Part shown: in pieces, positions 16,715-60,157 of the stretch
Layout: every line of letters starts with the position of its first letter
Numbering within the stretch: position 1 is the stretch's first letter
DNA from: Rickettsiales bacterium
GTDB taxonomy: Bacteria; Pseudomonadota; Alphaproteobacteria; Rickettsiales; JABIRX01
NCBI GenBank assembly: GCA_018659145.1
Contig: JABJNB010000085.1
Location: 124-64,123, forward strand
Direction: 5' to 3'
DNA length: 64,000 nt
Position numbers and translations under genes: made by a program
Notes under the pieces: generated by a model
What the model was told of the DNA's origin: nothing
The model's input: the letters and a program-made list of their open reading frames with translations, nothing else
The model's database searches: none

Positions 16715-16826
16715 CACTCTATTTATTTGCAAGCTAGTTTAGCGCGATCGTTTATATCTATATAAAATCAGCGATTTTTTATTGTATTGTTATGAACCTG
16801 TTTATAAATACGTAATAAATACCAGT

Positions 16827-20627: not shown

Positions 20628-20661
20628 TATATCTTACAAATTCATTAATTGTTGAACGATG

Positions 20662-20690: not shown

Positions 20691-20785
20691 GGTTGGTACC
20701 CAATTATTTTTATGTAGGGTCGGGAGATTGTATAGCCAAGAGACCTGGTTAATAATCGTTTTATGAGATGGTTAACACATCTGTA

Positions 20786-36979: not shown

Positions 36980-37034
36980 AGTTATATTATATTAAATTAA
37001 TTATAAGCAAAATAGCAACCTACGGTATATAGTA

Positions 37035-38261
37035 ATGCAAATCAATGAAATTTTCTGGCCAAATTTTTTAGGAGCACATGATATTGAGATGGGTCTTGAT
37101 AGAGTTCTTGATTTTGCTATAGCGGTTGGTAACCCACAAAAATATTTAAAAAATCTAGTCCATGTGGCTGGCACTAATGGTAAGGGGTCAACAATTAGTT
37201 TTTTAGAAGCTATGCTCAGGAGCGCAGGATATAGTGTTAACGTCTATACATCACCGCATTTAGTGCATTTTAATGAACGTATAAAGTTAAATGGATATTA
37301 TATTAGTGATAGCGAGTTAATTGGTATTTTAAAGAGGTGCCAAGAGATTGAAGAAAAGCAGCCGGGCAAAGTTACTTTTTTTGAGGGCACTACAATGGCG
37401 GCATTACTTGCATTTGCTAAATTCCCCGCTGATTTTACTTTGATTGAAACGGGATTAGGGGGGCGTCTTGATGCGACTAACATTTTTGAACATAAGTTAT
37501 TATCCATTATCACCTTTATAGCTCAAGATCACGAAGAGTACCTAGGTAGTGATATTCTGGGGATAGCTGGTGAGAAAGCAGCGATTATGGATAATTCTGA
37601 TGTGGTTATATTGGCTAAGCAGGATGCAAATGTGCAGCAATTTTTAATTAACTATGCAGAAAAACGAGATAAAACCATAATGGAGAGTGGGGAGGTTTGT
37701 AAAGATCTGTTAGTCCAAGACTTGCCATTACTTGGCGCTCATCAAATTGATAATTTTAAGGCAGCTTTTACCGCCCTGACTCTTTTGGTTGGTATTGAGA
37801 AGGCTAAAGTTGGATATGATGGTTATAAAAGGTATTTTGCTTGGCCGGCCCGGATGCAGGAAATTTTATTTAAGGATGTGGTTAGTCGCTTAAAGCCGGG
37901 ATCTAAAGTTTATTTAGATGGGGCGCATAATGTTGCGGCAGGTTCTAAGATTGCGGAATATCTGGGGCCGGAATCTCATAAATATGCTAAAATCTATCTT
38001 ATTTGTAATCAGACGAAGGATCGTAACATAGAGGAGTTCTTAGCAGAATTCAGTAATATAAATTTAGATTGTTATTCTTATCACTTTGACCATACAAGAC
38101 CTTTTTATAAGGAGTCAGAGTTGAGAGATATGTTAGGCAATACTCATAAAGGTGGGTTTTATAATTGGGATGATGTCTGGAAGTTAGACCGGGGTAATAG
38201 CTTATTTTTAATTTGCGGATCGCTTTTTCTGGCGGGTCATTTTTTAGCAAATTATTCATAA
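37035..38261 (+). CDS. folC: Bifunctional folylpolyglutamate synthase / dihydrofolate synthase
   Basis: Mur-ligase P-loop HVAGTNGKGST, then TSPHL, ETGLGGRLDATN and DGAHN. Confidence 0.9.
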   Translation: MQINEIFWPNFLGAHDIEMGLDRVLDFAIAVGNPQKYLKNLVHVAGTNGKGSTISFLEAMLRSAGYSVNVYTSPHLVHFNERIKLNGYYISDSELIGILKRCQEIEEKQPGKVTFFEGTTMAALLAFAKFPADFTLIETGLGGRLDATNIFEHKLLSIITFIAQDHEEYLGSDILGIAGEKAAIMDNSDVVILAKQDANVQQFLINYAEKRDKTIMESGEVCKDLLVQDLPLLGAHQIDNFKAAFTALTLLVGIEKAKVGYDGYKRYFAWPARMQEILFKDVVSRLKPGSKVYLDGAHNVAAGSKIAEYLGPESHKYAKIYLICNQTKDRNIEEFLAEFSNINLDCYSYHFDHTRPFYKESELRDMLGNTHKGGFYNWDDVWKLDRGNSLFLICGSLFLAGHFLANYS

Positions 38262-38328: not shown

Positions 38329-39750
38329 ATGCAGAATTTTTATAATTTAATATTAGCTGGCGGAAGCGGCACGAGGCTTTGGCCCCTATCGAGGCAGACA
38401 TATCCTAAGCAGTTTATTAATTTTTTTGGCGAAAAGTCACTTTTTCAAGATACTTGTTTACGTGATAAATTGCATGAGAAGACAATTATCGCTACGGGCG
38501 AGAATCATCGTTTCTCAGTTCTGAATCAATTGAAACAAATAGGCTTGGATGCTGAAATTTTGGTAGAGCCTGATATCCGGGATACTTTTCCTATTATCTT
38601 GCTTTCAGCTCTTTATTTGAATAGCAAAGACCCTGAGAGTATTATGCTTGTTTTGGCATCGGATCATATAATCAAAGATGCGGATAAATTTAACAAAATT
38701 ATATCAAGCTCTATTCCAGCAGCCGAGGCTGGCTACTTTGTTACATTCGGGATTAAGCCTGATAGTCCAAATACAGGTTATGGGTATATTGAAAAATCAG
38801 ATAAGTTAGAGTTGGGCAAAGGGGAGCATAATTGTTATAAAGTAAAACAATTTCATGAAAAGCCGGACAAGGTAAAGGCGGAGGAATATTTATCTCAAGG
38901 TGATTGCTTTTGGAATTCTGGGATTTTTCTTTTTAAGACAGAAAGCTTTCTGAAGAAAATTAAAGAGACTTCACCTGATCTATATAGTTTGGCAGAGAAG
39001 AATATAGATGCCTTAACTAACTTAGCAGAATTTAAGCGTTTTAATAAGGAGTTATTTTGTCAATTCCCAAAAATCTCAATCGATTATGCTTATCTTGAAA
39101 AGGCGGATAATGTTGCAGTGAGTATTGCAGATATTGATTGGAATGATCTTGGGAGTTATGAAAGCTTGCATGATGTGGCAGATAAAGATCAAAACAATAA
39201 CTTTGCTGATTGCGAGTTGATAGCAAAAAATTCGACTAATCTGTTTATTAAGCAGGAGAATAAAGGTAAGTTGGTTGCAACTATAGGAGTTAGCGACTTG
39301 ATAATTATTGATACAAATGACGCTCTTCTAATAGCTAAACAGGGCGATAGTGGTTCTATCAAAGCTTTGGTCAATCAGCTGAAGAGCGTTGGTGATGAGC
39401 GAGTAAAATATCATAGCCTTAATTATAGGCCTTGGGGCAAGTATGTATCACTTGTAAAAGGCGATCATTTTCAGGTAAAAGAAATAACGGTTTATCCAGG
39501 GGGATTGTTATCGCTTCAATATCATCATTATAGATCGGAACATTGGATAGTGGTTGAGGGGACTGCGAAAGTTGAGATTGATGGAAAAATTAGTATTCTA
39601 AATGCTAATCAATCAATTTACATACCAAAAGAAGTGAGGCATCGTTTAACTAATGAGACTGATCAACCTCTTAAACTGATAGAAGTGCAAACGGGCGATA
39701 AAATTGATGAGGATGATATTGTTAGATTGGAAGATATTTATGGGAGGTAG
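38329..39750 (+). CDS. manC: Mannose-1-phosphate guanylyltransferase / mannose-6-phosphate isomerase (type II PMI)
   Basis: N-terminal LAGGSGTRLWPLSR nucleotidyltransferase motif. C-terminal cupin with RPWGKY, QYHHYRSEHWIVVEGTA and RHRLTN. Confidence 0.92.
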   Translation: MQNFYNLILAGGSGTRLWPLSRQTYPKQFINFFGEKSLFQDTCLRDKLHEKTIIATGENHRFSVLNQLKQIGLDAEILVEPDIRDTFPIILLSALYLNSKDPESIMLVLASDHIIKDADKFNKIISSSIPAAEAGYFVTFGIKPDSPNTGYGYIEKSDKLELGKGEHNCYKVKQFHEKPDKVKAEEYLSQGDCFWNSGIFLFKTESFLKKIKETSPDLYSLAEKNIDALTNLAEFKRFNKELFCQFPKISIDYAYLEKADNVAVSIADIDWNDLGSYESLHDVADKDQNNNFADCELIAKNSTNLFIKQENKGKLVATIGVSDLIIIDTNDALLIAKQGDSGSIKALVNQLKSVGDERVKYHSLNYRPWGKYVSLVKGDHFQVKEITVYPGGLLSLQYHHYRSEHWIVVEGTAKVEIDGKISILNANQSIYIPKEVRHRLTNETDQPLKLIEVQTGDKIDEDDIVRLEDIYGR

Positions 39751-39857
39751 TATCTCTATCAGGAGAGAAATTTTGTGGAGGAGAGAAGTTAAGAAAGCTA
39801 TTCTTTCTGTGTGCAGGATTTATATGTCCTTACGCCCAGTTTTTACCAATGAGTTAA

Positions 39858-40271
39858 TCACATATTAGCTTTAATAATATATAAAGTCCCAGCAAGTGCA
39901 AAGCCTAAGCCGTATCCAGCAATAACCTCAATCATATTATGTCCTGTTTTCTCTCTGAGATTTTGGATTTTCTGATTATCGGGAAATATTTCCTTTAGAG
40001 CCACAGCTTGCTTGCCGATTTTATTTCTAGTATCCATCGAATCGATAGCAATAATAGTAGCTACAACAAACATGATGCCAAAATTGCTAGTGAAGCCCTC
40101 AGATAGAGCTATATAAAACAACATGGAGCTTGTTATAGTGTTGTGGGTGCTAGGAATTCCGCCAAGGCCTATGGCTTTAAAATTTAGTGATTTGGCTTTT
40201 ATTGAATTGATTAAGAATTTTAATGATCCTGCTGCGAGATAGGCCAGGATCGGCAATATTAAATACACCAT
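39858..40271 (-). CDS. Divergent PAP2 family (DUF212/YuiD-like) membrane phosphatase-related protein
   Basis: GGIPSTHNT, IDSMDTRNKIGKQA and GHNMIEVIAG parallel GGMPSSHSA, YDA.GVRR..G.QA and GHTP.EV.AG of the YuiD family. 137 aa with 3-4 TM helices. Confidence 0.8.
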   Translation of the reverse strand: MVYLILPILAYLAAGSLKFLINSIKAKSLNFKAIGLGGIPSTHNTITSSMLFYIALSEGFTSNFGIMFVVATIIAIDSMDTRNKIGKQAVALKEIFPDNQKIQNLREKTGHNMIEVIAGYGLGFALAGTLYIIKANM

Positions 40272-40285
40272 TATACAAATATGTG

Positions 40286-41344
40286 TTAAATCTTTAAATT
40301 ATTAGCCAAGCACCATTTGATACTCTCATGCATACCTTGCTTTAAAGCTAGAATCGGCTGGTAGCCCAACTCTGCTTTTGCCTTGCTGATATCACAAGCA
40401 ATATTCTGATTCATTTCAGATAGGACATGTATTTTTTGTTGATACAAACCACATGTTTGCAGAGTCTTGTCAGCAAGCCTTGCGCAATCAGAAATAATAG
40501 CTGGTAGGCGTGGTATTGATGTTTTGGTATCAATACCTAATTCGCTCAGAACTTCTTGAATAGTTTTGACAATTTCATTCATAGAATATGGCTCTTCATC
40601 AGCTATCCAGTAAACCTCACCAATAGCTTTCTTCGAAGCGGCGCTTAGCAGCATACCAAGTGCTAAGCTATCCACATAGGCCATAGATCTTTGATTAGTT
40701 CCATCTCCTAGAATAGGAAACTTCCCATTTTTTATCATTGAAAAAAACAAAGTTTGCCTAGCTGGCTGACCTGGTCCGTAGAACCATGGCGCTCTAATGA
40801 TGGTAATTTCTGGAGTATTAGATTGTGTCATAAAATCTTGCAGTCCTAGCTCCATCAACTTTTTAGATAATCCATATTTCATATAAGGATTAAATTCATC
40901 TGTTTCTGTGAATTTATGGGTATTATTGGGGTTGCAGCCAAGTGGTGAGTTGGATGACATGATAACAAGTCGCTTAACTTTATTTTCTTTTGCAATATTT
41001 ACTAAATTTAACGAAGCTTTATAGTTGATATCAAAAAAATCTTTAGTTCTAAGTTTTGGATGAATAATTCCTGCTAGATGGATTACTAAGGCACCTTCAG
41101 AATTTTCAAACAGAGATTTTAATGAGTTATTATCTCGTATATCTCCGTTTACGATTTTTATTTTATCATCAAGAATGAGAGCTTTAGTATCTTCTCCTGT
41201 TGGAACTAGGCAGATTATTTCTTGCTGATGCTTTGCTGCGCTTATTTCTTTGATTTGATTGCGGATAGCTAAAACCACTCTTTTGCCGAGCCAGCCAGTT
41301 GCGCCGGTAATTATAATTTTATTATAGGAATTTAAATTTATCAT
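40286..41344 (-). CDS. Extended SDR, NAD-dependent epimerase/dehydratase family
   Basis: Rossmann motif ITGATGWLGKR and catalytic YGLSK (YxxxK). 352 aa. Confidence 0.85.
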   Translation of the reverse strand: MINLNSYNKIIITGATGWLGKRVVLAIRNQIKEISAAKHQQEIICLVPTGEDTKALILDDKIKIVNGDIRDNNSLKSLFENSEGALVIHLAGIIHPKLRTKDFFDINYKASLNLVNIAKENKVKRLVIMSSNSPLGCNPNNTHKFTETDEFNPYMKYGLSKKLMELGLQDFMTQSNTPEITIIRAPWFYGPGQPARQTLFFSMIKNGKFPILGDGTNQRSMAYVDSLALGMLLSAASKKAIGEVYWIADEEPYSMNEIVKTIQEVLSELGIDTKTSIPRLPAIISDCARLADKTLQTCGLYQQKIHVLSEMNQNIACDISKAKAELGYQPILALKQGMHESIKWCLANNLKI

Positions 41345-41350
41345 GAGTTT

Positions 41351-42223
41351 CTAGTAAATTAAGATAGCAAAGATTATTGACCAAATAATAAGCGTATTAC
41401 GCATTAATTGATCATGGATAATTAAGTCTGTTGGTGAGTCTCCTTGAATATCAACTAAGACAGCTTGATTGAACCTGATGAGGATAATAGCTGCTGGAAT
41501 AATTGTGATACCAAGATATTGGCCAAATTTGGCTATTCCATAATCTGAGAAACAAAATAGCAAATATGATGTTAGGGTAACGCTTGAAACTATGCTTAAA
41601 ATATTATCTAAAAAAGCTAAGTTATATCTAGCTAGTGATTTTCTTTGCAAATCTTTATCATTGTTTAATGCAATATCAGCTCTTCTTTTGCCCGTGACCA
41701 ACAGCAGTGACGCTGATGCTGTGCACATAATGATCCATGGGCTTAAAGTTAGATCTAATATTACTGCTCCAGCAAAAAGCCTAAGCACAAAGCCTGATGC
41801 CACAAAGAATAATTCAAGAATTGGCTGTGCTTTAAAATAGAAGCTATAGGCAAGATTAATTGCTAGGTAGAGTAGCAAAATTTGGGTGAAGCCCAAGTCC
41901 CATGGAGTGATATAATAAATAGCCGATAATGCAGCAAATAAACCAATAATTATTAGATATGCATTCTGGATTGATATAGCTCCGCTTGCCAGAGGTCTAA
42001 ACTTTTTGGTCTTATGTTTTTGATCAGCAGATTTATCTCTAATATCATTTATGATATAGACAATGGAAGACATTAGGCAGAAAACAACAAATCCTATAAT
42101 AGCTATCTTCAGATTAGGTAGTTGTAGTAGGGAGCCATCAAAAAATAATGGTATAAAAACAATAAGGTTTTTTACCCATTGCTTGATTCGAATTAGTGAG
42201 AGAATTGCTAATAAGTTTATCAT
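41351..42223 (-). CDS. UbiA-family polyprenyl-phosphate phosphoribosyltransferase (decaprenyl-phosphate 5-phosphoribosyltransferase-like)
   Basis: IRIKQWVKNLIV, YIINDIRDKSADQKHKTKKFRPLASG, GKRRADI and RKSLARYN track (from memory) M. tuberculosis Rv3806c IRPRQWVKNVLV, YLVNDVRDVEADREHPTKRFRPIAAG, GKRYAEL and RKSLESYT. About 8 TM helices. Confidence 0.85.
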   Translation of the reverse strand: MINLLAILSLIRIKQWVKNLIVFIPLFFDGSLLQLPNLKIAIIGFVVFCLMSSIVYIINDIRDKSADQKHKTKKFRPLASGAISIQNAYLIIIGLFAALSAIYYITPWDLGFTQILLLYLAINLAYSFYFKAQPILELFFVASGFVLRLFAGAVILDLTLSPWIIMCTASASLLLVTGKRRADIALNNDKDLQRKSLARYNLAFLDNILSIVSSVTLTSYLLFCFSDYGIAKFGQYLGITIIPAAIILIRFNQAVLVDIQGDSPTDLIIHDQLMRNTLIIWSIIFAILIY

Positions 42224-43680
42224 ATTGAGGTTTTGTAATTATATAAAAAATGCTTAATGTTACGCAAAGTTATAGCCATTATGGTTGCTTGTGGATTTGT
42301 ACCTGGTGCCTCAGGTATAATGCTCCCATCGGCAATAAACAAGTTTTTTATATTATGTAACTTGCCATAAGAATCTACAGCCGTGAGCGCTTTATTCTCG
42401 CCCATAGGACATGAGCTAAAGAGATGGATTGTCATTAGGTTATAATGCTTAAGTGCATAATGCGGGATATCACATTGGTATTTTTTATAGGTTGAATAGG
42501 CAGTGGATCCATAGATTGATGGGAAAACTTTCTTTGCATCAGAGGCGAACATTGCTTGCATCAAATAGTCCAAGCCTAATTTAATTTTGCCCCAATCATT
42601 TTTCGATAAATCATATTTTACAATAGGGTTATTAATATTGGGCAAAGCTATAATTTTACCGGATGACTCTGGCCGGATCATTGCATAATAAATACCTAAT
42701 TTATCGATATTTGGGATAAGGTTTTGGCGCCGCTCAAAATCTTCAGCAATATTCATGGCAACAAAACCAGGTTTCATGACGGAGCCACCAATTCTGATAT
42801 CTGGCATGAATTCTGTAATGGCTGTTTGCGGGACAGGATTAAATGGCATGGAGGTCACTGCGTCATTAAATTGCGCAATTGCTTTTATTGTTGGATGAAT
42901 CTTTAAACTATTACCAATATTATGATCCAGGCCATTTGTTTTAAGTAAAAATGGTGTTTGTATTGCCCCGCAACAGATAAAGATGTATTTTGTCTTGATG
43001 GAGATATTGCATTTTTTGCCATCATAATTTATCGCCGTGCCGGAGGCTTTAGTGACGGATCCATCTTTGATTGTTAAATTGGTGATTTTGCATTTAGCAA
43101 TTAACCTACCACCCATTCTTATAAATTCAGGGATTAGAGTTTTACTCATTGATTGCTTCTGATTATTCTTTTCAGCACGTTCAATTTGAGTTATTCTCCA
43201 ATTATTTTCTTTTCCTGCTTGTTTTAGAATTTCTTCTTCTTTAGCGAGTTTTGTTTTTTTAGTAGCATTGAGCAAGGTAAATATTTCGTCGTAATATGGC
43301 TTAAGGGATTTAGCTGAGAAATCTTTTATATCATATTTTTTTTGCCATGTATCTAGCAAATTATCTGGGCATTTTTGGACTAATCCACTATTTATTTCTG
43401 TACCACCACCAACGCATCTGCCTTCTGCATATGATATTGGAGGCTTGCCAAAGCAGGCTGTGATTCCGCCATTCCGCCATTTTTCTGTAAAATTCTTATA
43501 TTCTTTTGCATTTGGCTGCTTGGCATAATTGCCCTCTTCGGCCAAGATGACATCAATATTATTTTTAGCTAATTCCGATGCAACGAGACTACCACCAGCG
43601 CCAGATCCTATTACTAAAACATCGCAAGACAAATTACAATTATCTGATATTAGATGCGAGCCCGAGTTATGCATTTTCAT
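42220..43680 (-). CDS. GMC-family FAD-dependent oxidoreductase
   Basis: FAD motif DVLVIGSGAGGSLVA..LAEEG, then GRCVGGGTEINSG. C-terminal GMC signature HLFSSCPMG...NLFIADGSIIPEAPGTNPQATIMA. Confidence 0.88.
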   Translation of the reverse strand: MKMHNSGSHLISDNCNLSCDVLVIGSGAGGSLVASELAKNNIDVILAEEGNYAKQPNAKEYKNFTEKWRNGGITACFGKPPISYAEGRCVGGGTEINSGLVQKCPDNLLDTWQKKYDIKDFSAKSLKPYYDEIFTLLNATKKTKLAKEEEILKQAGKENNWRITQIERAEKNNQKQSMSKTLIPEFIRMGGRLIAKCKITNLTIKDGSVTKASGTAINYDGKKCNISIKTKYIFICCGAIQTPFLLKTNGLDHNIGNSLKIHPTIKAIAQFNDAVTSMPFNPVPQTAITEFMPDIRIGGSVMKPGFVAMNIAEDFERRQNLIPNIDKLGIYYAMIRPESSGKIIALPNINNPIVKYDLSKNDWGKIKLGLDYLMQAMFASDAKKVFPSIYGSTAYSTYKKYQCDIPHYALKHYNLMTIHLFSSCPMGENKALTAVDSYGKLHNIKNLFIADGSIIPEAPGTNPQATIMAITLRNIKHFLYNYKTSI

Positions 43681-44029
43681 AAATCTTATTTAAGATTACA
43701 TCCTGCTCGTAAAAACAAAGTAAGGTTAGGGATCTAATTAATCTAAGATATATTTTGCCATATGGGATAAAGGTAAAAATTTTACAAAGTTTACGATGCT
43801 GCTTCTTTGTTAGAGAGGTTGAAAATTTAGCAAATAGTAAGATGCCCAGAAAATGGTAAAATATAGTTAGGCAATTAATAGCAATATTTACGGGAAAGGG
43901 CAGGATGGATAATTCTTTTTTGATAAAGGAGGATGTTACTTGCATTATGTCACTTACCTCCTGATCCGATAATTTGTAATTAGATGGAATAATTATCTGC
44001 AATAGTAAGCCAGATATATTAAACATCAT
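43667..44029 (-). CDS. Small hydrophobic protein, unknown function (translationally coupled to the GMC oxidoreductase)
   Basis: 120-aa ORF overlapping both neighbours (by 11 nt upstream and 14 nt downstream). It has one or two hydrophobic helices (PVNIAINCLTIFYHFLGILLFA). No motif recognised. Confidence 0.55.
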   Translation of the reverse strand: MMFNISGLLLQIIIPSNYKLSDQEVSDIMQVTSSFIKKELSILPFPVNIAINCLTIFYHFLGILLFAKFSTSLTKKQHRKLCKIFTFIPYGKIYLRLIRSLTLLCFYEQDVILNKIYENA

Positions 44030-44369
44030 GCGCTATTAGAATCATGCCTATCGTAATGGCGATTAAACCAGAGATTTGCCAAATACCAAATGTTTCTTTA
44101 AATATTAAAAATGATGCTACAGAGAGTAAGGCAAATCCTGAAGATGCTAAAATTGGGTAACCAACTGATACTGGTAAATAATCAAGTGCTTTGGCGAAAA
44201 TAACTAAATTAATAACATAAAAAAAGATTGCCCCAACAAAATATGGGGATAGCAGCTTTAGCATCCATGATGTTTCTTCTGCCGTTGTGATCCGGCTATA
44301 TTTGAGCAATAAATTCCCAATAGTTGAATTGATTCCTGCTATTAATACTAAGATAATGCCTATGCTCAT
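44019..44369 (-). CDS. SMR/EamA-type 4-TM protein, ArnE/ArnF-like (polyprenyl-phosphate-sugar flippase subunit candidate)
   Basis: 116 aa with four TM helices. LDYLPVSVGYPILASSGFALLSV parallels the ArnE block LQNVPVGIAYPMLSLNFV. Confidence 0.7.
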   Translation of the reverse strand: MSIGIILVLIAGINSTIGNLLLKYSRITTAEETSWMLKLLSPYFVGAIFFYVINLVIFAKALDYLPVSVGYPILASSGFALLSVASFLIFKETFGIWQISGLIAITIGMILIAHDV

Positions 44370-45407
44370 TTAGATAATATATTTGATTATTGATAAACAT
44401 TTTTGTTTTAATGCAGATTGATGTTTTGATCCAGTAGAATATTTTCCGGCTAAAATAGCCTCTCTATTTTCGACATACCAATCATAAGTTTCTTGGAACA
44501 TTTTATAGCTAGAATATTGCGGTTTGAAACCAAGTAGTTTCTCAGCCTTGCTTATATCAAAATACATTGATCTACCATACATAAGTGAATGATAGCCACC
44601 AAGAGGCGATAGACCGAGTAAGCTTGTTACCTTCATTCCTGCGATAGTTAATCCCATTGGGACTGATTTTACTTTGCTTCCAGTGCCTGCATGCTTAGTT
44701 AAATTTTCTAACGTGTCACGCATTGAAGAAAATTCTTTAGCGCCGATATTAAAATCAGTATTTTCTTGATAAAACCCGGCTGCTATACAAGCATCCGCCA
44801 TATCGCTACTATGGATAAATTGATAAATATTATCGCCGCTACCAAGTACTGGAATATTGTAACCTTGATAGATCCATTCAAATAAAATTTGGAAAATACC
44901 AAGCCTGCCATGACCTAAAATTGTTCTAGGTCGTACAATAGAGATATTTAAACCTTTCTCTTTATATTCATGACATAATTCTTCTGCAGCATATTTGGCT
45001 TTACCATACTCCTCTTGTGGACTTGCTGAAGTTTGCTCGGTTACAGGATTATTTTCTGGCACGCCATAAACAGCGCTTGAAGAAGTATAAACAACTTTGG
45101 GAACGTTATTCTCTAAAGCTGCTTCTAAGATATTTTTGCTACCCTCATAATTAACTGACCAAAATAAGGCATTATCTTTTGCGATAGGAACTTGGGCGAC
45201 ATTGTGATGAATGATATCTATATTTTTGCAGGCATTATTTATTTGCTCGTAATTTCGTATATCACCTTGAATAAAGGTGAGATTCTTGTGATCGAATCCA
45301 GGCTTGTTCAGATCGAAAATTGTAACGTTATGGTCTTGATCTAGTAATTTTCTTGAAAGCGCTTCACCAAAAAAACCGCTGCCGCCTGTAACTAAAAGAT
45401 TGGTCAT
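44370..45407 (-). CDS. Extended SDR, NAD-dependent sugar epimerase/dehydratase/reductase family
   Basis: LLVTGGSGFFGEAL, catalytic YGKAKYAAE, and the SS triad region TSSSAVYG. 345 aa. Confidence 0.88.
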   Translation of the reverse strand: MTNLLVTGGSGFFGEALSRKLLDQDHNVTIFDLNKPGFDHKNLTFIQGDIRNYEQINNACKNIDIIHHNVAQVPIAKDNALFWSVNYEGSKNILEAALENNVPKVVYTSSSAVYGVPENNPVTEQTSASPQEEYGKAKYAAEELCHEYKEKGLNISIVRPRTILGHGRLGIFQILFEWIYQGYNIPVLGSGDNIYQFIHSSDMADACIAAGFYQENTDFNIGAKEFSSMRDTLENLTKHAGTGSKVKSVPMGLTIAGMKVTSLLGLSPLGGYHSLMYGRSMYFDISKAEKLLGFKPQYSSYKMFQETYDWYVENREAILAGKYSTGSKHQSALKQKCLSIIKYII

Positions 45408-45413
45408 TATTGT

Positions 45414-47249
45414 TTATTTATTTTGAGTAGTTAGAAATTCAATGTCTTCAATATAAAAGCAAATCTTTTCATTACTAGGGTTTTTTAATACAAACCTAAC
45501 GTATTTATGATCTTTTTGAAAATTATGAGATAATTCATATGATTTAAATTCAGGTGTGATTTTAATTATCTTGCCTATACCTTCCCGTGGAGAGGGGCCA
45601 TGTCTATCGACTTGTAATATTAATTTATCGCTTTTGCTTTCTTTCCCTAATCTGATTTGTGCCGTGAACTTATAATCTTTTGAATTGAATGGTTGGTAGT
45701 CCAGTACAGCCGAATTTTTTTCTTCGAAGCATATTTTATTGGCCTTTAAATTTGTTTTTACATTTCGTTCCTTTCTTAGTTTATAAGTTGGAGGAAGGCC
45801 TAGGCTTGTAATGGTATTATGTAGAAATGTATTTTCGGCTTCAACTTTGCTTAAAGAGGGGTCGTTAGGTATCTTAATTGTGACATTGTTAAAATTTGTA
45901 TATGATTTTTTATTTGTAAATGTGACGGAGAAGTTACCACATCCTATTTGTTCTTTTGAAATTATATGGCAGCCTTTTTCTAATAAAAATACTGGGATCC
46001 CAAACTGAAAACTTGTCCATAACCATCTGGCCGGGTCGCCATAGATGAAATCAACATTTTTTTGCTCTTGTAGTAAAATGTTGGCTATTATTTTATTAGT
46101 ACCAACCCTATTCCTAGGAATGAGTTCTTCGTTAGGCTTCAGTTTTGTATATTCTGATAGATAGCCGCTATAATATCTATAGCCGTCATGGGTGCCTATT
46201 TTGGGCCCCATAGGGATTAGTATATGCAGGAGCAATAAACCACAAATAGCAAAGTAGTATTTCTTTGCTATATTGTACTGCGATAGGTTAAAGAGAATGA
46301 AAATGATAGCAAAGTACATCAAGCCTAAAGCATAGGTTGGTGATGTAAAATTCTTAGTAGGGTATAAAGCCGCTATGATGCCTAGAATATATAAAAACAA
46401 TTCTAGATGTTTCTTTTTTGCATGATATTTAAGACTGGAAAAGCACAATGATATGATAAGTAAGCCATAAGTTACATAGTTAAATAATATTGAGAAAACG
46501 TAGAGGTTTTTTTCTTTTGGCCAGTAGCTACTATCAGACATAGTTCTGGACATGTGTTCAATAATATTCTGCAAATTAAGTAATGAAAAGTCTGTTAGAA
46601 CAGCCAGACATGCAAATGTGCTTAAGGTGCTAATAGATATGATTGCGGCATCTGTGAAAAATACTGATAATTTCTTCTTATATTTATTTGAGTCGTATAA
46701 ATACGCAGTCAGTAATATTGCGTATAAGCAAAAATCTATTCTGGCAAAAACTGATAATGCAAAGCAGGTGCCACATATTAGGGCATAAAAATGATTGGTG
46801 TTATATTTTAATTTCTTAGTAAAATAGAGGGTGAGGAGTAAGAAAAAAGCAGCGAGGACATGCGTGTTATAATATAGACCCGAGAATATTAATTCTTGCG
46901 TGGATACAAATACTAGAGCAAATAAAATTATTGAAGATTTTTCTTTAATATAGTCTCTAGCAATCAATGCGCAGATCAAGAAATTTAAGGAAGCTAGCAA
47001 TGCAATAAAATAGTACAAAAACTTAGCTTGTTCGCCGAAAATATTGTAAATAAAATTACCGAGATAAAAAATTAGAGGTTGAGCAGATAGATTGTATTTA
47101 AAGGTATCGTAATTTAGAGTAATAGACCCATATATTAACGAGGCCCCATCTTCATCATAGAAGGTATTTCCTGTGTGCAAAAATAAGAAGGCTAAAATTG
47201 TAAAAAATGATATATAGATTATATTATTTTGATTCAAAGAATGGGACAT
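45414..47249 (-). CDS. GT-C-fold (ArnT/PMT-like) polytopic glycosyltransferase candidate with a C-terminal beta-sandwich (CBM-like) domain
   Basis: About 11 hydrophobic helices in residues 1-400, with an acidic first-loop motif FYDEDGASLIY. The soluble tail of about 200 aa ends ...YVRFVLKNPSNEKICFYIEDIEFL, a pattern typical of jelly-roll carbohydrate-binding modules. Confidence 0.7.
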   Translation of the reverse strand: MSHSLNQNNIIYISFFTILAFLFLHTGNTFYDEDGASLIYGSITLNYDTFKYNLSAQPLIFYLGNFIYNIFGEQAKFLYYFIALLASLNFLICALIARDYIKEKSSIILFALVFVSTQELIFSGLYYNTHVLAAFFLLLTLYFTKKLKYNTNHFYALICGTCFALSVFARIDFCLYAILLTAYLYDSNKYKKKLSVFFTDAAIISISTLSTFACLAVLTDFSLLNLQNIIEHMSRTMSDSSYWPKEKNLYVFSILFNYVTYGLLIISLCFSSLKYHAKKKHLELFLYILGIIAALYPTKNFTSPTYALGLMYFAIIFILFNLSQYNIAKKYYFAICGLLLLHILIPMGPKIGTHDGYRYYSGYLSEYTKLKPNEELIPRNRVGTNKIIANILLQEQKNVDFIYGDPARWLWTSFQFGIPVFLLEKGCHIISKEQIGCGNFSVTFTNKKSYTNFNNVTIKIPNDPSLSKVEAENTFLHNTITSLGLPPTYKLRKERNVKTNLKANKICFEEKNSAVLDYQPFNSKDYKFTAQIRLGKESKSDKLILQVDRHGPSPREGIGKIIKITPEFKSYELSHNFQKDHKYVRFVLKNPSNEKICFYIEDIEFLTTQNK

Positions 47250-47491
47250 ATAATATTATTATGTGATGAGTGAGTGGTGGTCACCTGTAAGTATAAGGGT
47301 AAGTTTTTTCATTACTAGGTATTTAGAGGGTATTCTGATTGATGTTTGATTATAAAGAGAAGTTCTTTTTAAACCAGTGGTTTTTATGATCTAAATGCGC
47401 TAGTAGTGTTTCTATAGAGCCGTATCATTACCATTGCCATGATGAGAGGTTTGCTTAGTTTAGCAATTTTTTTTACAAACTAATTACGCTT

Positions 47492-49948
47492 ATGAACAAA
47501 AATAGTGGTGATCAGGCTATCAGTTGCCAAATGAAAAAACAAATTTGTTGTATAGGTACAGGGGTATTGATCCTAGTATCAATTATGATGCTGATATTTT
47601 ATCCGTCCATTTTGCAAAATAAAAAATACGGATTAGTCCCTTTGGAGCAAAGTAAAGCTATGGATGAAAATGCATATCAGGTTTTGAGAGAAAATATGCC
47701 AGATTATAGCATATTTTCTATGAAAAATAATTTAGATTTTAATGCTGATTATGTAAACTTGCATTTGCCTAAGTTGCAGACACAGAATAAGGCCTTGTCA
47801 AGAAATCGGATACCAGCTTATGACGAGAGTAGAATCTTGGGTTTAAGTTTACTAGGACATCCTTTGGCCGATCCTTTTAATCCTTTGAATTTTTTCTTTA
47901 GTTCGTTTGAACCTGGGCATACAATTCTTCTTAAGAATATTTCGTATTTGTTACTTGGGTTGATTTTCTATATTGTGCTTATATTTAAGCTTAATATTAC
48001 TAATAATATTTGGCTGGTTATCTCCGGAGCTTTTCTTTATGTGTTAATGCCTAATAGTATTTATTATCTGCATTGGGATAATTATATAGGGCTAACAATG
48101 GTACTGCCACTGATATTTATAGGAATAGTTGATCTCTTCAAGAAAAATTGGCCCGCTGCTTTATTATATTTAACTGCCGCTGGGTCCTTTTCCTTCTTAT
48201 TCAATATGTTTGAATTATTTTGTTACAGTATAATTTTTACAACTATTTTTTTTACGGCCCTAGCTTTAAAGGAAGTTAGGTCATTTAAGGATATTGGATT
48301 GGTAGTAGGCTTAATTTTTGTTGCAGCTTCACTGATAATTTTGATTTCATTTCCTCAGATTTCTTACAGCATTGAATACCTGTCTGAATTAACTAGATCA
48401 GGTCATTTTAATTGGGATGTTTATGTAAAGAGGCAGGCTTATTATCCAAAGCATGAAAGTCAGCTTTTGGGCCTGCTTGGCTTTCCGGTGATATGGAAAA
48501 CGCAGCATAATATTTTTGCTAATTTGGCAATCATATTCTCAATAGTGGTTGCGCTTACAAATTATAAAAAATTAAGCAATGTGATGAAGGCAATATCAGT
48601 TACCTTTCTTTGTAGCTTTGTCTTCCTATTTGTCGGATTTATAGATCTTCCTTTGCAGTTGTTTAATTTTTATAACTTATTCGCTAATCAAATCCGTTCG
48701 CTCTATATTTTAACTTTCCTGGGATCTATTTTATTTATCTATGGTTGCGATACTCTATTATTTGAGAAAGAGACAATATCTTGGGGCTTTTTACGAAACA
48801 ACCTTAGCAAAGTTTTGGCTATTATGGTGCTACTTCATGTAGTTATAATTTTATATTTTTACTTAGGTTTGAATGTTTTTCATTTCTCCTCTAGGCTATC
48901 CTGGTACCAAGACTTGCTTAATCAAAATTATTATTTGTTAGCTATAATTGCGACTCCAATTTTTATGTTAATTTTGTGGAGCAATATACAGAATCACTAT
49001 TATGCCAGAAGGTTATTAATTTGTATTCCTTTGTGTATCATAGCGCCATTATTGATTTTTGCTAAAATGACAGTGCCATTTTATAGTGATGACGATGTGC
49101 TTTCTTTGCAGGTAAATAATCATAAAAGCTTTTCTACTAGAGCAATTCTAATTGACCAAAAAAATGAAGCAAAATGCCCTAATTGCTGGCAAAAAGATTT
49201 GGGCACTATCCTTTGGAGCATGGGAGAGGTGCCCATAACAGGTTACGATACAGGGATTAAGGGTAAAACAACGGAAATTTTCAGAGAGTTTTGGAAGGAT
49301 GAAGATTATAATACTCTAGCTTTAAATCCTAGGTTTAGCTGGATTCATTGGCAAGATTATTGGATACCTCCAACATCTAAAAAGTTAATTACTCGTAATG
49401 CTAAGGGTAGTTTTATTCAATCGAATATGATTAAAAAAATGCAAATTTTGGGAGTCTCGAGAATTTATACCAATTATCAGTTGAGTAATTTGGATATTAA
49501 AGATCGTTTTTATAATATGGATTTATATGATCTTGGCTTTGAAACTCCATTTTCGATAGTGAGTAATTGTGAAATCGTGGATATAGAGAGATCAATATTA
49601 AATAGTGAAAGCTTTGCTCAGAATGATTGTATAATTAATGATGTATCATACAATCAGATAAGTTTTAATGATGGTTTGCCTCAATTTCATATGCAAAATC
49701 AGCTAGCTTTTTTAGTGATCCCGTATGATTTTCCAGGGTCATTCTACCTGCTTGATCAAGATAGTAATATTAGGTTGGCAGAGAGTGGAGCTACAGGGTT
49801 TTATATTGTTGATTTAAAAGAGCATAATAATTTGGGCATTAATTTTGATCATGAATCTTTGTGGAATAAGATAAAGGTAGCATTATTAGGGTTGTTTTTA
49901 TTGATAATTATGTTCTTTTTGCTTAGACGTCTTTATGTAAAAACATAA
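47492..49948 (+). CDS. Large polytopic membrane protein, YfhO/GT-C-like candidate
   Basis: 818 aa. Many TM helices in residues 20-540, then a soluble region of about 250 aa, then a final C-terminal TM anchor (VALLGLFLLIIMFFLL). This is the topology typical of YfhO-type lipid-linked-sugar transferases. No catalytic motif verified. Confidence 0.7.
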   Translation: MNKNSGDQAISCQMKKQICCIGTGVLILVSIMMLIFYPSILQNKKYGLVPLEQSKAMDENAYQVLRENMPDYSIFSMKNNLDFNADYVNLHLPKLQTQNKALSRNRIPAYDESRILGLSLLGHPLADPFNPLNFFFSSFEPGHTILLKNISYLLLGLIFYIVLIFKLNITNNIWLVISGAFLYVLMPNSIYYLHWDNYIGLTMVLPLIFIGIVDLFKKNWPAALLYLTAAGSFSFLFNMFELFCYSIIFTTIFFTALALKEVRSFKDIGLVVGLIFVAASLIILISFPQISYSIEYLSELTRSGHFNWDVYVKRQAYYPKHESQLLGLLGFPVIWKTQHNIFANLAIIFSIVVALTNYKKLSNVMKAISVTFLCSFVFLFVGFIDLPLQLFNFYNLFANQIRSLYILTFLGSILFIYGCDTLLFEKETISWGFLRNNLSKVLAIMVLLHVVIILYFYLGLNVFHFSSRLSWYQDLLNQNYYLLAIIATPIFMLILWSNIQNHYYARRLLICIPLCIIAPLLIFAKMTVPFYSDDDVLSLQVNNHKSFSTRAILIDQKNEAKCPNCWQKDLGTILWSMGEVPITGYDTGIKGKTTEIFREFWKDEDYNTLALNPRFSWIHWQDYWIPPTSKKLITRNAKGSFIQSNMIKKMQILGVSRIYTNYQLSNLDIKDRFYNMDLYDLGFETPFSIVSNCEIVDIERSILNSESFAQNDCIINDVSYNQISFNDGLPQFHMQNQLAFLVIPYDFPGSFYLLDQDSNIRLAESGATGFYIVDLKEHNNLGINFDHESLWNKIKVALLGLFLLIIMFFLLRRLYVKT

Positions 49949-49970: not shown

Positions 49971-50753
49971 ATGCTGTTAACCAAAATAATCCAAAAAAGA
50001 AACTTACAAGCAGGAATAGCTTTGTTTAAACGGGATCTGTTAGTGTCGAGGCAAAAATCTTATCTGTCCATTGTATGGGATATCTCAGAGCCATTAATAT
50101 TGGCAGTTTTTTTCATACTATTATATCAAAGAAAAGTTTTTTCCGTGCCAAATGCGGGAATGAGTTATGGTTTATATGTCGCATTTGGCATGTTGCTATG
50201 GCAAAGTTTCTTAGAGGCGCTAACTCAGCCAATATCAATTTTTGACCGATATAAGAATTTATTTGCTCATGTAAAAATAAATAATGGGGTGATCTTATAT
50301 GCTTTGGTTTTTAGCTTGCTATATAACCTAGGTTTTAGGGTTATTATTATGTGTGCAATATTGGCTTATTATAAAAGCTTTGTCTTCCTTCATGTTTTGT
50401 TTTTTGTGTTTGCGAGTGTGCTTATTATAGTGCCAGGTATCTCTATTGGTTTTTTTTTGGCAGCATTTGGGCCTTTTCGGGAGGATATAAAAAGATTTAT
50501 CAGTTTGATTTCGCGCCCCTTAATGTTTCTAAGCTGCACTATCTTTCCAATGCCACCTTCTGGCGTGCTGTCTTATGTTAATTTTTTGAACCCTGCAGCA
50601 GTATTTATTAACAATATTAGGTATATAGCCGTGCATGGTAACTTTTATAACTTTGAGGCTCTAATAATATGGCTGATTGGCTTTTGTGTATTTTTTCTAT
50701 TCGCATGGAAGCTATTTAAATTTGCTATAAAATATTTAATGGAAAGATCATGA
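49971..50753 (+). CDS. wzm: ABC-2 type polysaccharide export permease
   Basis: 260 aa, six TM helices, N-terminal FKRDLLVSRQKSYLSIVWDISEPL typical of Wzm/KpsM/TagG. Its stop overlaps the start of the following ATPase gene. Confidence 0.85.
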   Translation: MLLTKIIQKRNLQAGIALFKRDLLVSRQKSYLSIVWDISEPLILAVFFILLYQRKVFSVPNAGMSYGLYVAFGMLLWQSFLEALTQPISIFDRYKNLFAHVKINNGVILYALVFSLLYNLGFRVIIMCAILAYYKSFVFLHVLFFVFASVLIIVPGISIGFFLAAFGPFREDIKRFISLISRPLMFLSCTIFPMPPSGVLSYVNFLNPAAVFINNIRYIAVHGNFYNFEALIIWLIGFCVFFLFAWKLFKFAIKYLMERS

Positions 50754-51982
50754 GTGCTCAGACTATAATTGTTAAAAATTTAAGTAAAAAATATACAAAA
50801 TTTCCTGATAAGAATAAATTCCGATTTTTATTTTCCTTATTACGAGAGTTCTTTTTTGATAAAGTTGATGACAATTTAAAAGGAGATGAATTTTGGGCTT
50901 TTAAAGACATTAACTTTACTTTGAATAAAGGTGAGGTTTTTGCAATTCTTGGGTCTAATGGTAGTGGTAAATCTACTCTTTTGAAGGCTATCTACGGATT
51001 GATAAAGACCACCTCTGGCGAGGTAGGTGTTAATGGTAGGGTGGATGCTTTGATTAATTTGGGGGCTGGTTTTAATCGAGATTTGTCAGGGCGTGATAAT
51101 ATTAAAAGCCATGCAGCGCTTCATAATTATCCAGTTGGTGGAATAGATGATTTGGTAGAGCAAGTTGTAGAATTTTCAGAATTAGGAGATTTTATAGATT
51201 CGCCAGTGAAAAACTATAGCTCTGGAATGTATTCAAGACTTGGTTTCTCGTTAATTACTCATATGAAGCCAGATGTTTTAATTATAGATGAAGTATTGGC
51301 TGTGGGTGATGTATCCTTCCAAAATAAATGCTTTGTGAAAATGCAGGAATTAAAAACTCAGGGTGTAACGTTTCTTATGGTATCTCATAACCAATCCCAG
51401 ATTGCACAATTTTGTGATCGTGCTTTATGGCTTGAGAAAGGTGAGTTTAAAGAATTGGGCGAGGCCGGTGAGGTTCTAAAGAAATATATCAAATATATGA
51501 ATGAGAAAAATTTTCATGTAGTTGATGAGGTAAAAAAGAATGGATCTAAACAATCAATATATGGGCCAATTCATAATTTTGAGAATCAAATTCAGAATGT
51601 AAAGGTGGAGATAGTTGGGGATAATGAGGAGGGTCAAATCATAACAGGTGGTAATGCGATTGTAGAATATGACTTTGAGCTATTAAAATCTGTTGAAAAT
51701 TTAAATGTATCGTTAAATTTTAGTAAAGAGGATGGTCGCCTTATGAGTACTATCAATACTGTAAATGGAGATCTATTGCGGTCAATTAAGAGTGGTAAAG
51801 TAAAATGCCGAGTTTATATTGAGGATTTGAATCTGAATCCGGGCATTTACGTGTTAGTATTTGTGGTTCAAGATAATCATCGTTATATCTACCGTAATAT
51901 TATAACAAAATTTAATATTTTAGCTTCGAATGATTTGGTATGGGGAGAGATTAATTTAAAATATAAATATCAGACTTTTTAA
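50750..51982 (+). CDS. wzt: Polysaccharide ABC transporter ATP-binding protein with a C-terminal extension
   Basis: GSNGSGKSTLLK, LSGRDNI, YSSGMYSRLGFS and LIIDEVLAVGD. An extra domain of about 150 aa follows the NBD, as in Wzt proteins that bind the terminal cap of the O-polysaccharide. Confidence 0.9.
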   Translation: MSAQTIIVKNLSKKYTKFPDKNKFRFLFSLLREFFFDKVDDNLKGDEFWAFKDINFTLNKGEVFAILGSNGSGKSTLLKAIYGLIKTTSGEVGVNGRVDALINLGAGFNRDLSGRDNIKSHAALHNYPVGGIDDLVEQVVEFSELGDFIDSPVKNYSSGMYSRLGFSLITHMKPDVLIIDEVLAVGDVSFQNKCFVKMQELKTQGVTFLMVSHNQSQIAQFCDRALWLEKGEFKELGEAGEVLKKYIKYMNEKNFHVVDEVKKNGSKQSIYGPIHNFENQIQNVKVEIVGDNEEGQIITGGNAIVEYDFELLKSVENLNVSLNFSKEDGRLMSTINTVNGDLLRSIKSGKVKCRVYIEDLNLNPGIYVLVFVVQDNHRYIYRNIITKFNILASNDLVWGEINLKYKYQTF

Positions 51983-53029
<1,047 letters not shown>

Positions 53030-58784: not shown

Positions 58785-58789
58785 ATAAT

Positions 58790-59359
58790 ATGGACGATTA
58801 TAATACAGATTGGCTAGATGATTATTTTGATAGATATAAAAAATTAGCTTTCGAGAAAGAAATATACCCAGACCTAATTACTTTTAAGGAAATGGCCTTA
58901 GAAGTGAAGGCTAATAACAAAAAGATTATCTTTATTGGTAATGGGGCGAGCGCAGCAACGTCAAGCCATTGCGCTGTGGATTTTACTAAGCAAGCAGGAG
59001 TTAGGTCAATTACTTTTAATGAAGCTGGATTGCTTACTTGTTTTGCGAATGATTTTGGTTATGAGAACTCGCATGCTAAGGCGCTTGATTTTTACGCTTT
59101 AGAAGGTGATTTAGTGGTTTTGGTAAGCTGTAGTGGAAATTCGCCAAATATTGTAAAAGCTGCGGAATTTGCTAAATCAAAAGGTCTTAAAATAATTACA
59201 TTCACAGGATGCTCGGCAGATAACGCCTCAAGGCAGCTAGGTGATTTGAACTTTTGGGTTGATTCAAAAGCATATAACGTGATTGAATCTATTCATATGA
59301 TGTGGATTACTTGTGTGGTTGATTTAATTGTCGGTAAGGCTGAATATTCAGTTTCGTAA
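58790..59359 (+). CDS. SIS-domain sugar-phosphate isomerase, GmhA (sedoheptulose-7-phosphate isomerase)-like
   Basis: IGNGASAATSSHCAVDF, NDFGYEN, VSCSGNSPNIVKAAEFAKSKGLKIITFTG. These parallel E. coli GmhA GNGGS...H.A.E, NDFGF and STSGNSANVIKAI..A...GMKVITLTG. Confidence 0.88.
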   Translation: MDDYNTDWLDDYFDRYKKLAFEKEIYPDLITFKEMALEVKANNKKIIFIGNGASAATSSHCAVDFTKQAGVRSITFNEAGLLTCFANDFGYENSHAKALDFYALEGDLVVLVSCSGNSPNIVKAAEFAKSKGLKIITFTGCSADNASRQLGDLNFWVDSKAYNVIESIHMMWITCVVDLIVGKAEYSVS

Positions 59360-60154: not shown

Positions 60155-60157
60155 TTA

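Follow-up and report, generated by a model that had tools for sequence, protein, structure and literature searches.

An eight-gene operon on the minus strand of contig JABJNB010000085.1 from a Rickettsiales bacterium (positions 39858-47249 of the 64,000-nucleotide stretch analyzed here, referred to as the window) probably encodes an extended form of the three-component systems that attach pentofuranoses to glycans outside the cytoplasm, with an ABC-transporter-type O-polysaccharide as its target. This reading draws on the homology and fold of the encoded parts, on synteny that is conserved across bacteria, and on in-frame fusions between a small protein and a GMC-family flavoenzyme. The initial annotation had proposed a lipid-linked pentofuranose pathway assembled from non-mycobacterial parts. 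The polyprenyl-phosphate pentofuranose scheme itself is well supported, but its novelty is not, because three-component systems have already been published (PMC11127046). What is new here is the conserved cassette, the small partner of the GMC enzyme, a link between a DUF212 protein and short forms of the first enzyme, and the presence of the same redox module beside DprE1 and DprE2.

The reference point is the work of Kelly, Duong, Nothof, Lowary and Whitfield (PNAS 2024, PMC11127046) on Citrobacter youngae O1/O2, whose O-antigens are made in manC/wzm/wzt/gmd loci and gain alpha-ribofuranose (Ribf) or xylofuranose (Xylf) side chains. In that system a polyprenyl-phosphate 5-phosphoribosyltransferase (PPPRS) fused to a HAD domain (ORF15) generates undecaprenyl-phospho-ribofuranose from phosphoribosyl pyrophosphate (PRPP), a MATE protein (ORF14) is the presumed flippase, a GT-C enzyme (ORF12, founding member of GT136) transfers the sugar in the periplasm, and a short-chain dehydrogenase/reductase (SDR), ORF13, converts Ribf to Xylf. 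The same paper notes DprE1/DprE2 homologs where the glycan contains arabinofuranose (Araf), and its Fig. S12 displays additional loci as candidates. Some of these have SMR transporters and "multiple different epimerases", and one is the "elaborate" candidate system of Rhizobium sp. CCGE531 (CP032687.1). The genes of the operon, in transcription order, are:

45414..47249, minus strand: candidate periplasmic GT-C fold glycosyltransferase of 611 aa (weak PMT_2 match and Foldseek)
44370..45407, minus strand: SDR1, an extended SDR (Pfam Epimerase)
44019..44369, minus strand: SMR-family protein with four transmembrane (TM) segments, candidate flippase (Pfam Multi_Drug_Res)
43667..44029, minus strand: 120-aa small partner of the GMC flavoprotein (iterated hidden Markov model and fusions)
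42220..43680, minus strand: GMC-family FAD oxidoreductase, candidate dehydrogenase (GMC_oxred_N and GMC_oxred_C)
41351..42223, minus strand: PPPRS of the Rv3806c type, short form (NCBIfam NF008978 and structure 8j8j)
40286..41344, minus strand: SDR2, an extended SDR (Pfam Epimerase)
39858..40271, minus strand: DUF212 (divergent PAP2) protein, candidate 5-phosphatase (Pfam DUF212)

All eight reading frames were recovered at the coordinates first annotated, and their junctions (+6, 0, -11, -14, -4, +6 and +14 nt) bear out the description of genes that overlap or lie no more than 14 nt apart. The original family assignments were upheld by Pfam and NCBIfam, and for the GT-C gene by structure. Scans of 39600-47600 with consensus promoter and terminator patterns returned counts equal to those of shuffled sequence; because these scans are uninformative, operon status follows from gene packing and from conserved synteny elsewhere. 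The likeness to C. youngae O1/O2 extends to a UbiA-type, PRPP-dependent PPPRS, a lipid-linked pentofuranose donor, a flippase, a periplasmic GT-C enzyme, auxiliary cytoplasmic oxidoreductases that would alter the pentose, and a manC/wzm/wzt/gmd O-antigen locus. The two differ in that C. youngae has a fused HAD domain, a MATE flippase and one tailoring SDR, whereas the window has a separate DUF212 membrane protein, an SMR protein, and a small subunit plus GMC enzyme plus two extended SDRs.

The first enzyme of the pathway is the most firmly placed. The UbiA homolog scores 210.4 bits against NCBIfam NF008978 (decaprenyl-phosphate phosphoribosyltransferase; cut-off 207), far more than against the quinone, haem and chlorophyll prenyltransferase models, and residues 6-282 match the Rv3806c structure 8j8j with E=1.1e-40. 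The motifs QWVKN, NDIRDKSADQKHKTKKFRPLASG and GKRRA, on which an Rv3806c-like rather than quinone- or haem-type enzyme had been proposed, are present in the translation and align with Rv3806c, and NDxRDxxxD, KxFRPxA and GKRxA are in register between the two proteins. Archaeal UbiA and aromatic prenyltransferases match only at about 1e-4, which rules out an aromatic prenyltransferase. Assignment as a PRPP:polyprenyl-phosphate phosphoribosyltransferase is thereby well supported by sequence, and the protein has the NDxxD(x)nD motifs of the UbiA-family component of three-component systems. At 290 aa it is without the HAD phosphatase domain. The Caudoviricetes ct9Mr3 system of Kelly et al. was not among the matches when a phage collection was searched by tblastn with the PPPRS.

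The operon is not peculiar to this organism. Relatives of the GMC protein number more than 2600 in a protein search, and a scan of one genome per species yielded at least 576 confirmed relatives, of which the best 80 were taken for locus comparison. The closest among the species-representative genomes listed is 48% identical, and the best 80 come from Alpha-, Beta- and Gammaproteobacteria, Cyanobacteria (Planktothrix, Lyngbya), Actinomycetota (Ilumatobacteraceae, Acidimicrobiia), Verrucomicrobiota, Acidobacteriota, Planctomycetales and Patescibacteria. When window proteins were compared with all open reading frames of the 41 species-representative loci that have full 10-kb flanks around the GMC gene, the small protein was found in 40, SDR1 in 38, SDR2 in 37, the PPPRS in 28 and the SMR protein in 17. 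Two loci (L088, L089) have the gene order of the window, DUF212 included, and a third (L087) has the same gene set with DUF212 after the GT-C gene; SDR1 is 58-63% identical in these three. Seven of the eight operon genes constitute a cassette conserved in at least seven phyla. The GT-C slot alone is filled by unrelated sequences, and the transferase is therefore the variable part of the system.

The cassette is also carried by symbiosis plasmids of rhizobia (loci L005, L006 and others), including pNGR234a, where it lies next to nodS, pRCCGE531b, Mesorhizobium japonicum pMLa and a plasmid of R. gallicum. On pNGR234a of Sinorhizobium fredii NGR234 it occupies NC_000914.2 299625-307690 (NGR_RS31055-31085), and pRCCGE531b is the plasmid that appears in Fig. 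S12 of Kelly et al. (PMC11127046). Orthologs of SDR1, the SMR protein, the small protein, the GMC enzyme (about 40% identity), SDR2 and the PPPRS are joined there by a large polytopic membrane protein. The rhizobial cassette differs from that of the window in having a PPPRS with an N-terminal HAD domain and no DUF212, in its division into two divergent operons on a symbiosis plasmid rather than in an O-antigen locus, and in a membrane transferase without detectable similarity to the window GT-C protein. A search of pNGR234a for nod-box-like patterns found a site near nodS and none upstream of the cassette, and the literature searched contained no published function for the rhizobial or window cassette.

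The flavoprotein matches GMC_oxred_N (1.9e-25) and GMC_oxred_C (1.5e-19), both above the Pfam cut-offs, and conserves the FAD-binding GxGxxG (G25-G30), E49 and the catalytic pair H419 and N462, with G25-G30, H419 and N462 conserved at 95% or more. Foldseek confirmed the GMC fold from an AlphaFold2 model (pLDDT 79.6). The best matches (E about 1e-27 to 1e-23) are the large subunit of membrane-bound fructose dehydrogenase and the alpha subunit of FAD-glucose dehydrogenase, followed by cholesterol oxidase, C-glycoside 3-oxidase and pyranose oxidase; choline oxidase, hydroxymethylfurfural (HMF) oxidase and aryl-alcohol oxidase are also among the structural neighbors. The protein has no signal peptide and no Tat motif, so it is presumably a sugar dehydrogenase that works in the cytoplasm in association with the membrane.

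Directly upstream of the GMC gene is the gene for the 120-aa protein, whose single central hydrophobic helix agrees with its initial description, although it is not the generic small hydrophobic protein that this description implied. In iterated hidden Markov model searches, 76 of 86 loci had its gene immediately 5' of the GMC gene, with the two in the same orientation and either touching or overlapping. In six further loci the protein is fused in frame to the GMC N-terminus, and a protein search also returned a 602-aa fusion, P0006, whose N-terminus matches it by BLASTP (E=1e-7). This conserved position and the fusions rule out a spurious reading frame or generic hydrophobic peptide. Because of them, the protein is, as judged from sequence, an obligate partner subunit or domain of the GMC flavoenzyme and represents a previously unannotated family. 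The closest GMC structures, those of Gluconobacter fructose dehydrogenase (7w2j) and of Burkholderia cepacia FAD-glucose dehydrogenase gamma-alpha (6a2u/8grj), likewise have a small subunit, whose gene immediately precedes that of the GMC large subunit. Their small subunits, however, are Tat-signaled, belong to Pfam Gluconate_2-dh3 and work with a periplasmic cytochrome c subunit. The 120-aa protein has no RR motif, the operon contains no cytochrome gene, and the set of PF13618 domain, Tat-signaled small subunit and cytochrome c that marks those complexes was not found. No Pfam or PDB match to the 120-aa protein was significant; a sub-threshold Gluconate_2-dh3 match (E=0.17) in one of 19 members was not relied on.

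The two SDRs are 22% identical to each other and represent distinct families with intact catalytic motifs. SDR1 (Pfam Epimerase, 5.5e-42) has the sterol 3-dehydrogenase NSDHL (6jkg, 7e-23) as its nearest solved structure, followed by GalE-like enzymes, and TGGxGxxG, D32, SSS109-111 and Y134xxxK138 are at least 95% conserved in 77 orthologs. SDR2 (Pfam Epimerase, 1.3e-29) has only a weak PDB relative, RmlB (7.5e-13), and TGxxGWLG, SSNSP130-134 and Y157xxxK161 are at least 95% conserved in 75 orthologs. SDR1 is a candidate NAD-type ketoreductase or epimerase acting on the lipid-linked sugar, and SDR2 a candidate second oxidoreductase of the module. One of them had alternatively been suggested to be the missing GDP-4-keto-6-deoxymannose reductase for gmd (52004-53029), outside the lipid-linked pathway. 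In favor of this suggestion, no gene recognizable as rmd, fcl or per accompanies gmd where the window is annotated. Neither SDR reaches the threshold of the NCBIfam Rmd/Fcl models, however, and both travel with the GMC gene across many phyla (38 and 37 of 41 loci), while a Gmd homolog occurs in only one of 90 GMC-anchored loci. Neither SDR is therefore likely to be the gmd partner, an idea that we regard as highly improbable.

It had also been proposed that the GMC enzyme and an extended SDR replace DprE1 and DprE2. In the mycobacterial decaprenyl-phospho-arabinose (DPA) pathway (Rv3806c, Rv3807c, DprE1, DprE2, Rv3789, Emb/Aft), the first enzyme is homologous to that of the window (8j8j, 1e-40), and the two share a PAP2-superfamily phosphatase, the logic of a flavoenzyme with a reductase, a small membrane protein in the flippase role and a GT-C enzyme. 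The window has a GMC fold with a dedicated small subunit and two extended SDRs, not a VAO-type DprE1 and a classical-SDR DprE2, and a DUF212 protein where the mycobacterial pathway has a classical PAP2 protein. Proteobacterial relatives of the mycobacterial pathway include Azorhizobium noeCHOP and pilin arabinosylation in P. aeruginosa PA7; of the four DPA steps, three have M. tuberculosis enzymes orthologous to noeC, noeH and noeO, with no GMC enzyme involved (PMC5080398). Sequence searches of the window found no DprE1 or DprE2 homolog, neither the FAD_binding_4 plus ALO flavoenzyme nor the adh_short SDR that define the pair; GMC and extended SDR proteins are present instead.

If the GMC enzyme and one extended SDR were a fold-swapped DprE1/DprE2, they would epimerize C2' to give polyprenyl-phospho-D-arabinofuranose for D-Araf decoration. 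The missing DprE1/DprE2 homologs in the window are consistent with such a swap, as are the shared chemical logic of an FAD oxidase with an NAD(P)H reductase (PMC11127046), the position of the redox module beside the PPPRS, and 80 PPPRS-anchored metagenome loci in which one has a GMC gene, several have DprE1 and none has both. That metagenome scan used a three-sequence alignment as the query, a seven-sequence alignment being too divergent. The swap is nevertheless weakened by six Ilumatobacteraceae loci (L068, L070, L075, L077, L079, L085), which contain the small-GMC-SDR2-SDR1 module together with DprE1 and DprE2 homologs that are 44-46% identical to the M. tuberculosis proteins, and a single PPPRS within 17 kb. 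The Pfam domains of the matches served as an independent check on the seed sequences used for DprE1 and DprE2: in L079, FAD_binding_4 plus ALO (DprE1) and adh_short (DprE2) were confirmed. The genes of L079 lie at about 10000-11428 (GMC), 11421-12455 (SDR2), 12425-13495 (SDR1), 14651-15529 (DprE2), 15451-16812 (DprE1) and 20479-21393 (PPPRS). These loci, from metagenome-assembled genomes of Actinomycetota, also encode a 1382-aa PMT_2-type GT-C protein.

The Ilumatobacteraceae loci suggest that two different lipid-linked pentose donors are made from one precursor, although all six are from one family and so may reflect a single evolutionary event. Since a single cluster is unlikely to keep two systems for one function, we favor a product that is not DPA, and because C2' epimerization needs one reductase, yet two SDR families are kept almost universally, a simple swap is disfavored. 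We consider the swap, with its C2' epimerization and D-Araf decoration, rather unlikely. A product other than D-Araf, for instance Xylf, lyxofuranose (Lyxf) or an L-series pentofuranose, seems an evenly poised proposition, and D-Araf itself, ranked below it, a doubtful one. The options would include the C3' epimer (Xylf), Lyxf as a double epimer if the module acts on or alongside Araf, and an L-series pentofuranose formed via a keto intermediate, with C5' chemistry less likely. D-Lyxofuranose, according to Kelly et al. (PMC11127046), has never been found in a solved glycan. More specifically, we tentatively propose that the small subunit, GMC, SDR1 and SDR2 proteins carry out a distinct tailoring of polyprenyl-phospho-ribofuranose (or -arabinofuranose) to a product that is neither Araf nor the Xylf of ORF13, and that the DUF212 subfamily, beside this module, is a cytoplasm-facing phosphoribose 5-phosphatase. 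D-lyxofuranose and an L-series pentofuranose would then be possible, if speculative, donor sugars.

A more radical change of the sugar has also to be weighed, in which the GMC enzyme oxidizes C5' to an aldehyde or acid, and a decarboxylating, NSDHL/UXS-like SDR and a ketoreductase follow. The products would be a tetrofuranose, a furanuronic acid or a C4-inverted L-pentofuranose, none of which we know in bacterial glycans. Oxidation of primary alcohols is common among GMC enzymes (choline oxidase, HMF oxidase, aryl-alcohol oxidase), the nearest solved relative of SDR1 is the decarboxylating NSDHL, three redox proteins would suit a three-step route, and coexistence with DprE1/DprE2 implies a different product. 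The route is nonetheless pure inference, and the closest structural neighbors (fructose 5-dehydrogenase, glucose dehydrogenase, cholesterol oxidase and glycoside 3-oxidase) mostly oxidize secondary or anomeric hydroxyls. We judge C5' chemistry a distant prospect, and prefer oxidation of a ring hydroxyl.

With no HAD domain on the PPPRS, the phosphatase slot of the operon is a question of its own. The DUF212 protein scores 86.4 bits against Pfam DUF212 (cut-off 26.5), and K18, N22, PSTH40-43, D77, R82, R106, H111 and E115 are invariant in 12 aligned sequences, in keeping with the K, PSxH and R..H...D/E signature of the PAP2/DUF212 superfamily. K18, PSTH40-43, R106, H111 and E115 sit in two K/R-rich loops; because of this charge (positive-inside rule), the catalytic loops are presumed to face the cytoplasm, the side of the 5-phosphate. 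An N-terminal HAD domain is present in 25 of the 57 PPPRS genes that adjoin GMC genes, and DUF212 is near none of these 25; it is near three of the other 32, the short forms (L017, L031, L048). Four of four close DUF212 homologs on long contigs (L087-L090) adjoin a short PPPRS. One of these is a minimal locus (L090, 3884-6845) of PPPRS, DUF212 and a 542-aa membrane protein without the GMC/SDR module, and another locus (L151, 398-3436) combines DprE1, a short PPPRS and DUF212. As L090 and L151 carry PPPRS and DUF212, DUF212 follows the PPPRS and not the redox module. The placing of a YuiD-type PAP2 protein in the phosphatase slot is plausible from this linkage and the conserved PAP2 residues, and the protein is plausibly a polyprenyl-phospho-ribose-5-phosphate 5-phosphatase that takes the place of the fused HAD domain. 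The literature searched held no functional study of DUF212.

The remaining components concern movement and transfer of the sugar. The SMR protein has four TM segments and scores 33.2 bits against Pfam Multi_Drug_Res (cut-off 23.7), with weak NCBIfam matches to ArnF (3e-6) and ArnE (3e-4), which agrees with the SMR/ArnE-type flippase initially predicted and with the MATE or SMR gene of three-component loci. About 39 of 86 GMC-anchored loci have an SMR gene, and three have GtrA instead. The ArnT/ArnE/ArnF system for lipid A modification with 4-amino-4-deoxy-L-arabinose (L-Ara4N) similarly flips an undecaprenyl-phosphate sugar with an SMR-type transporter and relies on a GT-C enzyme, ArnT, the top Foldseek match of the window transferase. 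It differs in that its donor is made from a nucleotide sugar by the GT2 enzyme ArnC, not from PRPP, in that the sugar is a pyranose, and in that the acceptor is lipid A.

The transferase itself was called GT-C-like from the outset, and the modeled TM domain (AlphaFold2, pLDDT about 90) bears this out. The N-terminal region of about 345 aa is polytopic, with at least eight TM helices and YDEDG after TM1; the C-terminal region of about 265 aa is soluble, and its last 180 residues are not confidently modeled. Foldseek ranks 1-34 in the PDB are nearly all GT-C enzymes (ArnT 5f15 at 4.9e-4, Pmt4, ALG9/12, STT3/PglB, EmbA/B/C), with two GPI-transamidase chains among them, although only the top match, ArnT 5f15, has E<=1e-3 and TM-scores are low, at 0.24-0.43. 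By sequence, PMT_2 is below its cut-off (20.8 against 26.1 bits, E=4.7e-4), and the NCBIfam LA_3751/2 putative glycosyltransferase model gives E=2.6e-8. An exhaustive search of 1.84 billion representatives returned 39 matches with E<1e-3, and a word-indexed search only the protein itself. PMT_2 matches five of 25 relatives, a profile of the 39 has no PDB match by sequence, and in pairwise comparison the window protein resembled neither the large membrane protein encoded in the rhizobial cassette nor the 536-542-aa membrane proteins of L087-L090. The public gene call P0121 covers only the last 379 aa; the 611-aa reading frame is nonetheless a real gene, because relatives align from about residue 6 and the first 232 aa hold TM1-TM5 and YDEDG. 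It is a candidate periplasmic pentofuranosyltransferase.

The surroundings of the operon indicate what the acceptor is likely to be. The neighboring features are:

38329..39750, plus strand: ManC, mannose-1-phosphate guanylyltransferase/isomerase (Pfam NTP_transferase and MannoseP_isomer)
47492..49948, plus strand: 818-aa polytopic membrane protein (about 12 TM segments; YfhO E=0.0033, sub-threshold)
49971..53029, plus strand: Wzm (ABC2_membrane), Wzt (ABC_tran and a C-terminal, carbohydrate-binding Wzt_C domain) and Gmd (GDP_Man_Dehyd, 1.8e-135)

The manC gene converges on the 3' end of the operon, and the divergent gene for the 818-aa protein heads wzm, wzt, gmd and then three GT1-type genes identified by Pfam. 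As judged from these neighbors, the surroundings are an ABC-transporter-dependent O-polysaccharide locus that would supply the likely acceptor, and O-antigen decoration, as first suggested, is the natural target. An acceptor other than O-polysaccharide, namely lipid A or core, some other glycolipid, or a protein of the periplasm or cell surface (pilin, for instance), is unlikely, though several facts point toward it: the near-orphan GT-C protein best matches the lipid A modifier ArnT and then protein O-mannosyltransferases, the rhizobial cassette is on symbiosis plasmids, away from O-antigen genes, and P. aeruginosa uses a homologous donor for pilin (PMC11127046). Against these stand the embedding of the operon between manC and the wzm-wzt-gmd-GT genes, exactly as in the Citrobacter O1/O2 loci, and the finding that no pilin gene is adjacent.

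We infer from these data a scheme that sets out substrates, order of steps, site of oxidation, acceptor and product. The short PPPRS, whose homology is established above, would use PRPP to load ribose-5-phosphate onto a polyprenyl phosphate, presumably undecaprenyl phosphate, at the cytoplasmic face of the membrane, and the DUF212 protein, placed here by gene linkage, would strip the 5-phosphate from the resulting polyprenyl-phospho-ribose-5-phosphate. The small subunit and GMC enzyme would then oxidize a ring hydroxyl (C2' or C3') of the lipid-linked ribofuranose to a ketone, and the NAD(P)-dependent SDR1 and SDR2 would reduce and/or epimerize this keto sugar to a pentofuranose other than ribose. 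The SMR protein would flip the lipid-linked donor, and the GT-C enzyme would move the sugar onto the Wzm/Wzt-exported polysaccharide in the periplasm.

Several points weigh against this scheme. A PPPRS was within 10 kb in only 28 of the 41 full-flank loci. DUF212 occurs with only a minority of short PPPRS genes (3 of 32 that are GMC-linked, and one of 80 PPPRS-anchored metagenome loci), so that other phosphatases would serve elsewhere, and statistical support for the DUF212-PPPRS link outside its own subfamily is modest. The scheme does not account for the need for two SDRs, and the oxidation site and product that it gives the GMC/SDR/SDR module are guesses. The GT-C protein is a near-orphan with a poorly modeled C-terminal domain, its donor and acceptor are presumptive, and the acceptor could differ from O-polysaccharide.

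Other genes of the window are described for completeness. The 818-aa protein (47492-49948) belongs to no NCBIfam family and has no similarity to the operon GT-C protein; it may be a second GT-C-like enzyme. A 677-aa protein (53030-55063, plus strand) combines a GT1 domain with an MptE-like domain; this pairing and the Wzt_C domain of Wzt (50750-51982) give a hint of a modification system that terminates the chain, like that of E. coli loci of the O9a type. A seven-gene run on the plus strand (57738-63231) resembles a pathway for an unusual CMP-activated sugar; it encodes a GFO/IDH/MocA dehydrogenase, a GmhA-like SIS isomerase, a 264-aa protein without a family, an inositol-monophosphatase-like phosphatase, a CMP-type cytidylyltransferase (PseF/KdsB-like), a D-2-hydroxyacid dehydrogenase and a 6-phosphogluconolactonase-like protein. 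Housekeeping genes occupy the upstream part of the window, and between them and manC are an AsnB-type glutamine amidotransferase (minus strand) and a FolC/Mur-ligase-like protein (plus strand) at 35201-38261. An 867-aa reading frame without a Pfam family lies at 29390-31993 on the minus strand. The G+C content of the window is about 34-36%.

The set of small subunit, GMC enzyme, SDR1 and SDR2 is present in several hundred species-level genomes of Proteobacteria, Cyanobacteria, Actinomycetota, Verrucomicrobiota, Acidobacteriota and Patescibacteria, as well as on rhizobial symbiosis plasmids. DprE1 is a validated tuberculosis drug target, and its type of chemistry is not the sole flavoenzyme type associated with polyprenyl-phospho-ribose. 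If the module does make a new lipid-linked sugar, it would be a fourth route beside direct Ribf, ORF13-type Xylf and DprE1/E2-type Araf, and would account for an unannotated cassette in hundreds of genomes, including the symbiosis plasmids of nodulating rhizobia and bloom-forming cyanobacteria. It would point to surface sugars that standard analyses may have overlooked. Two families without an assigned function, that of the small protein associated with the GMC enzyme and the DUF212 subfamily, would also gain one, the latter being the first divergent PAP2 proteins to do so, and the cassette offers a compact, portable gene set for glycoengineering of side-chain pentofuranoses.

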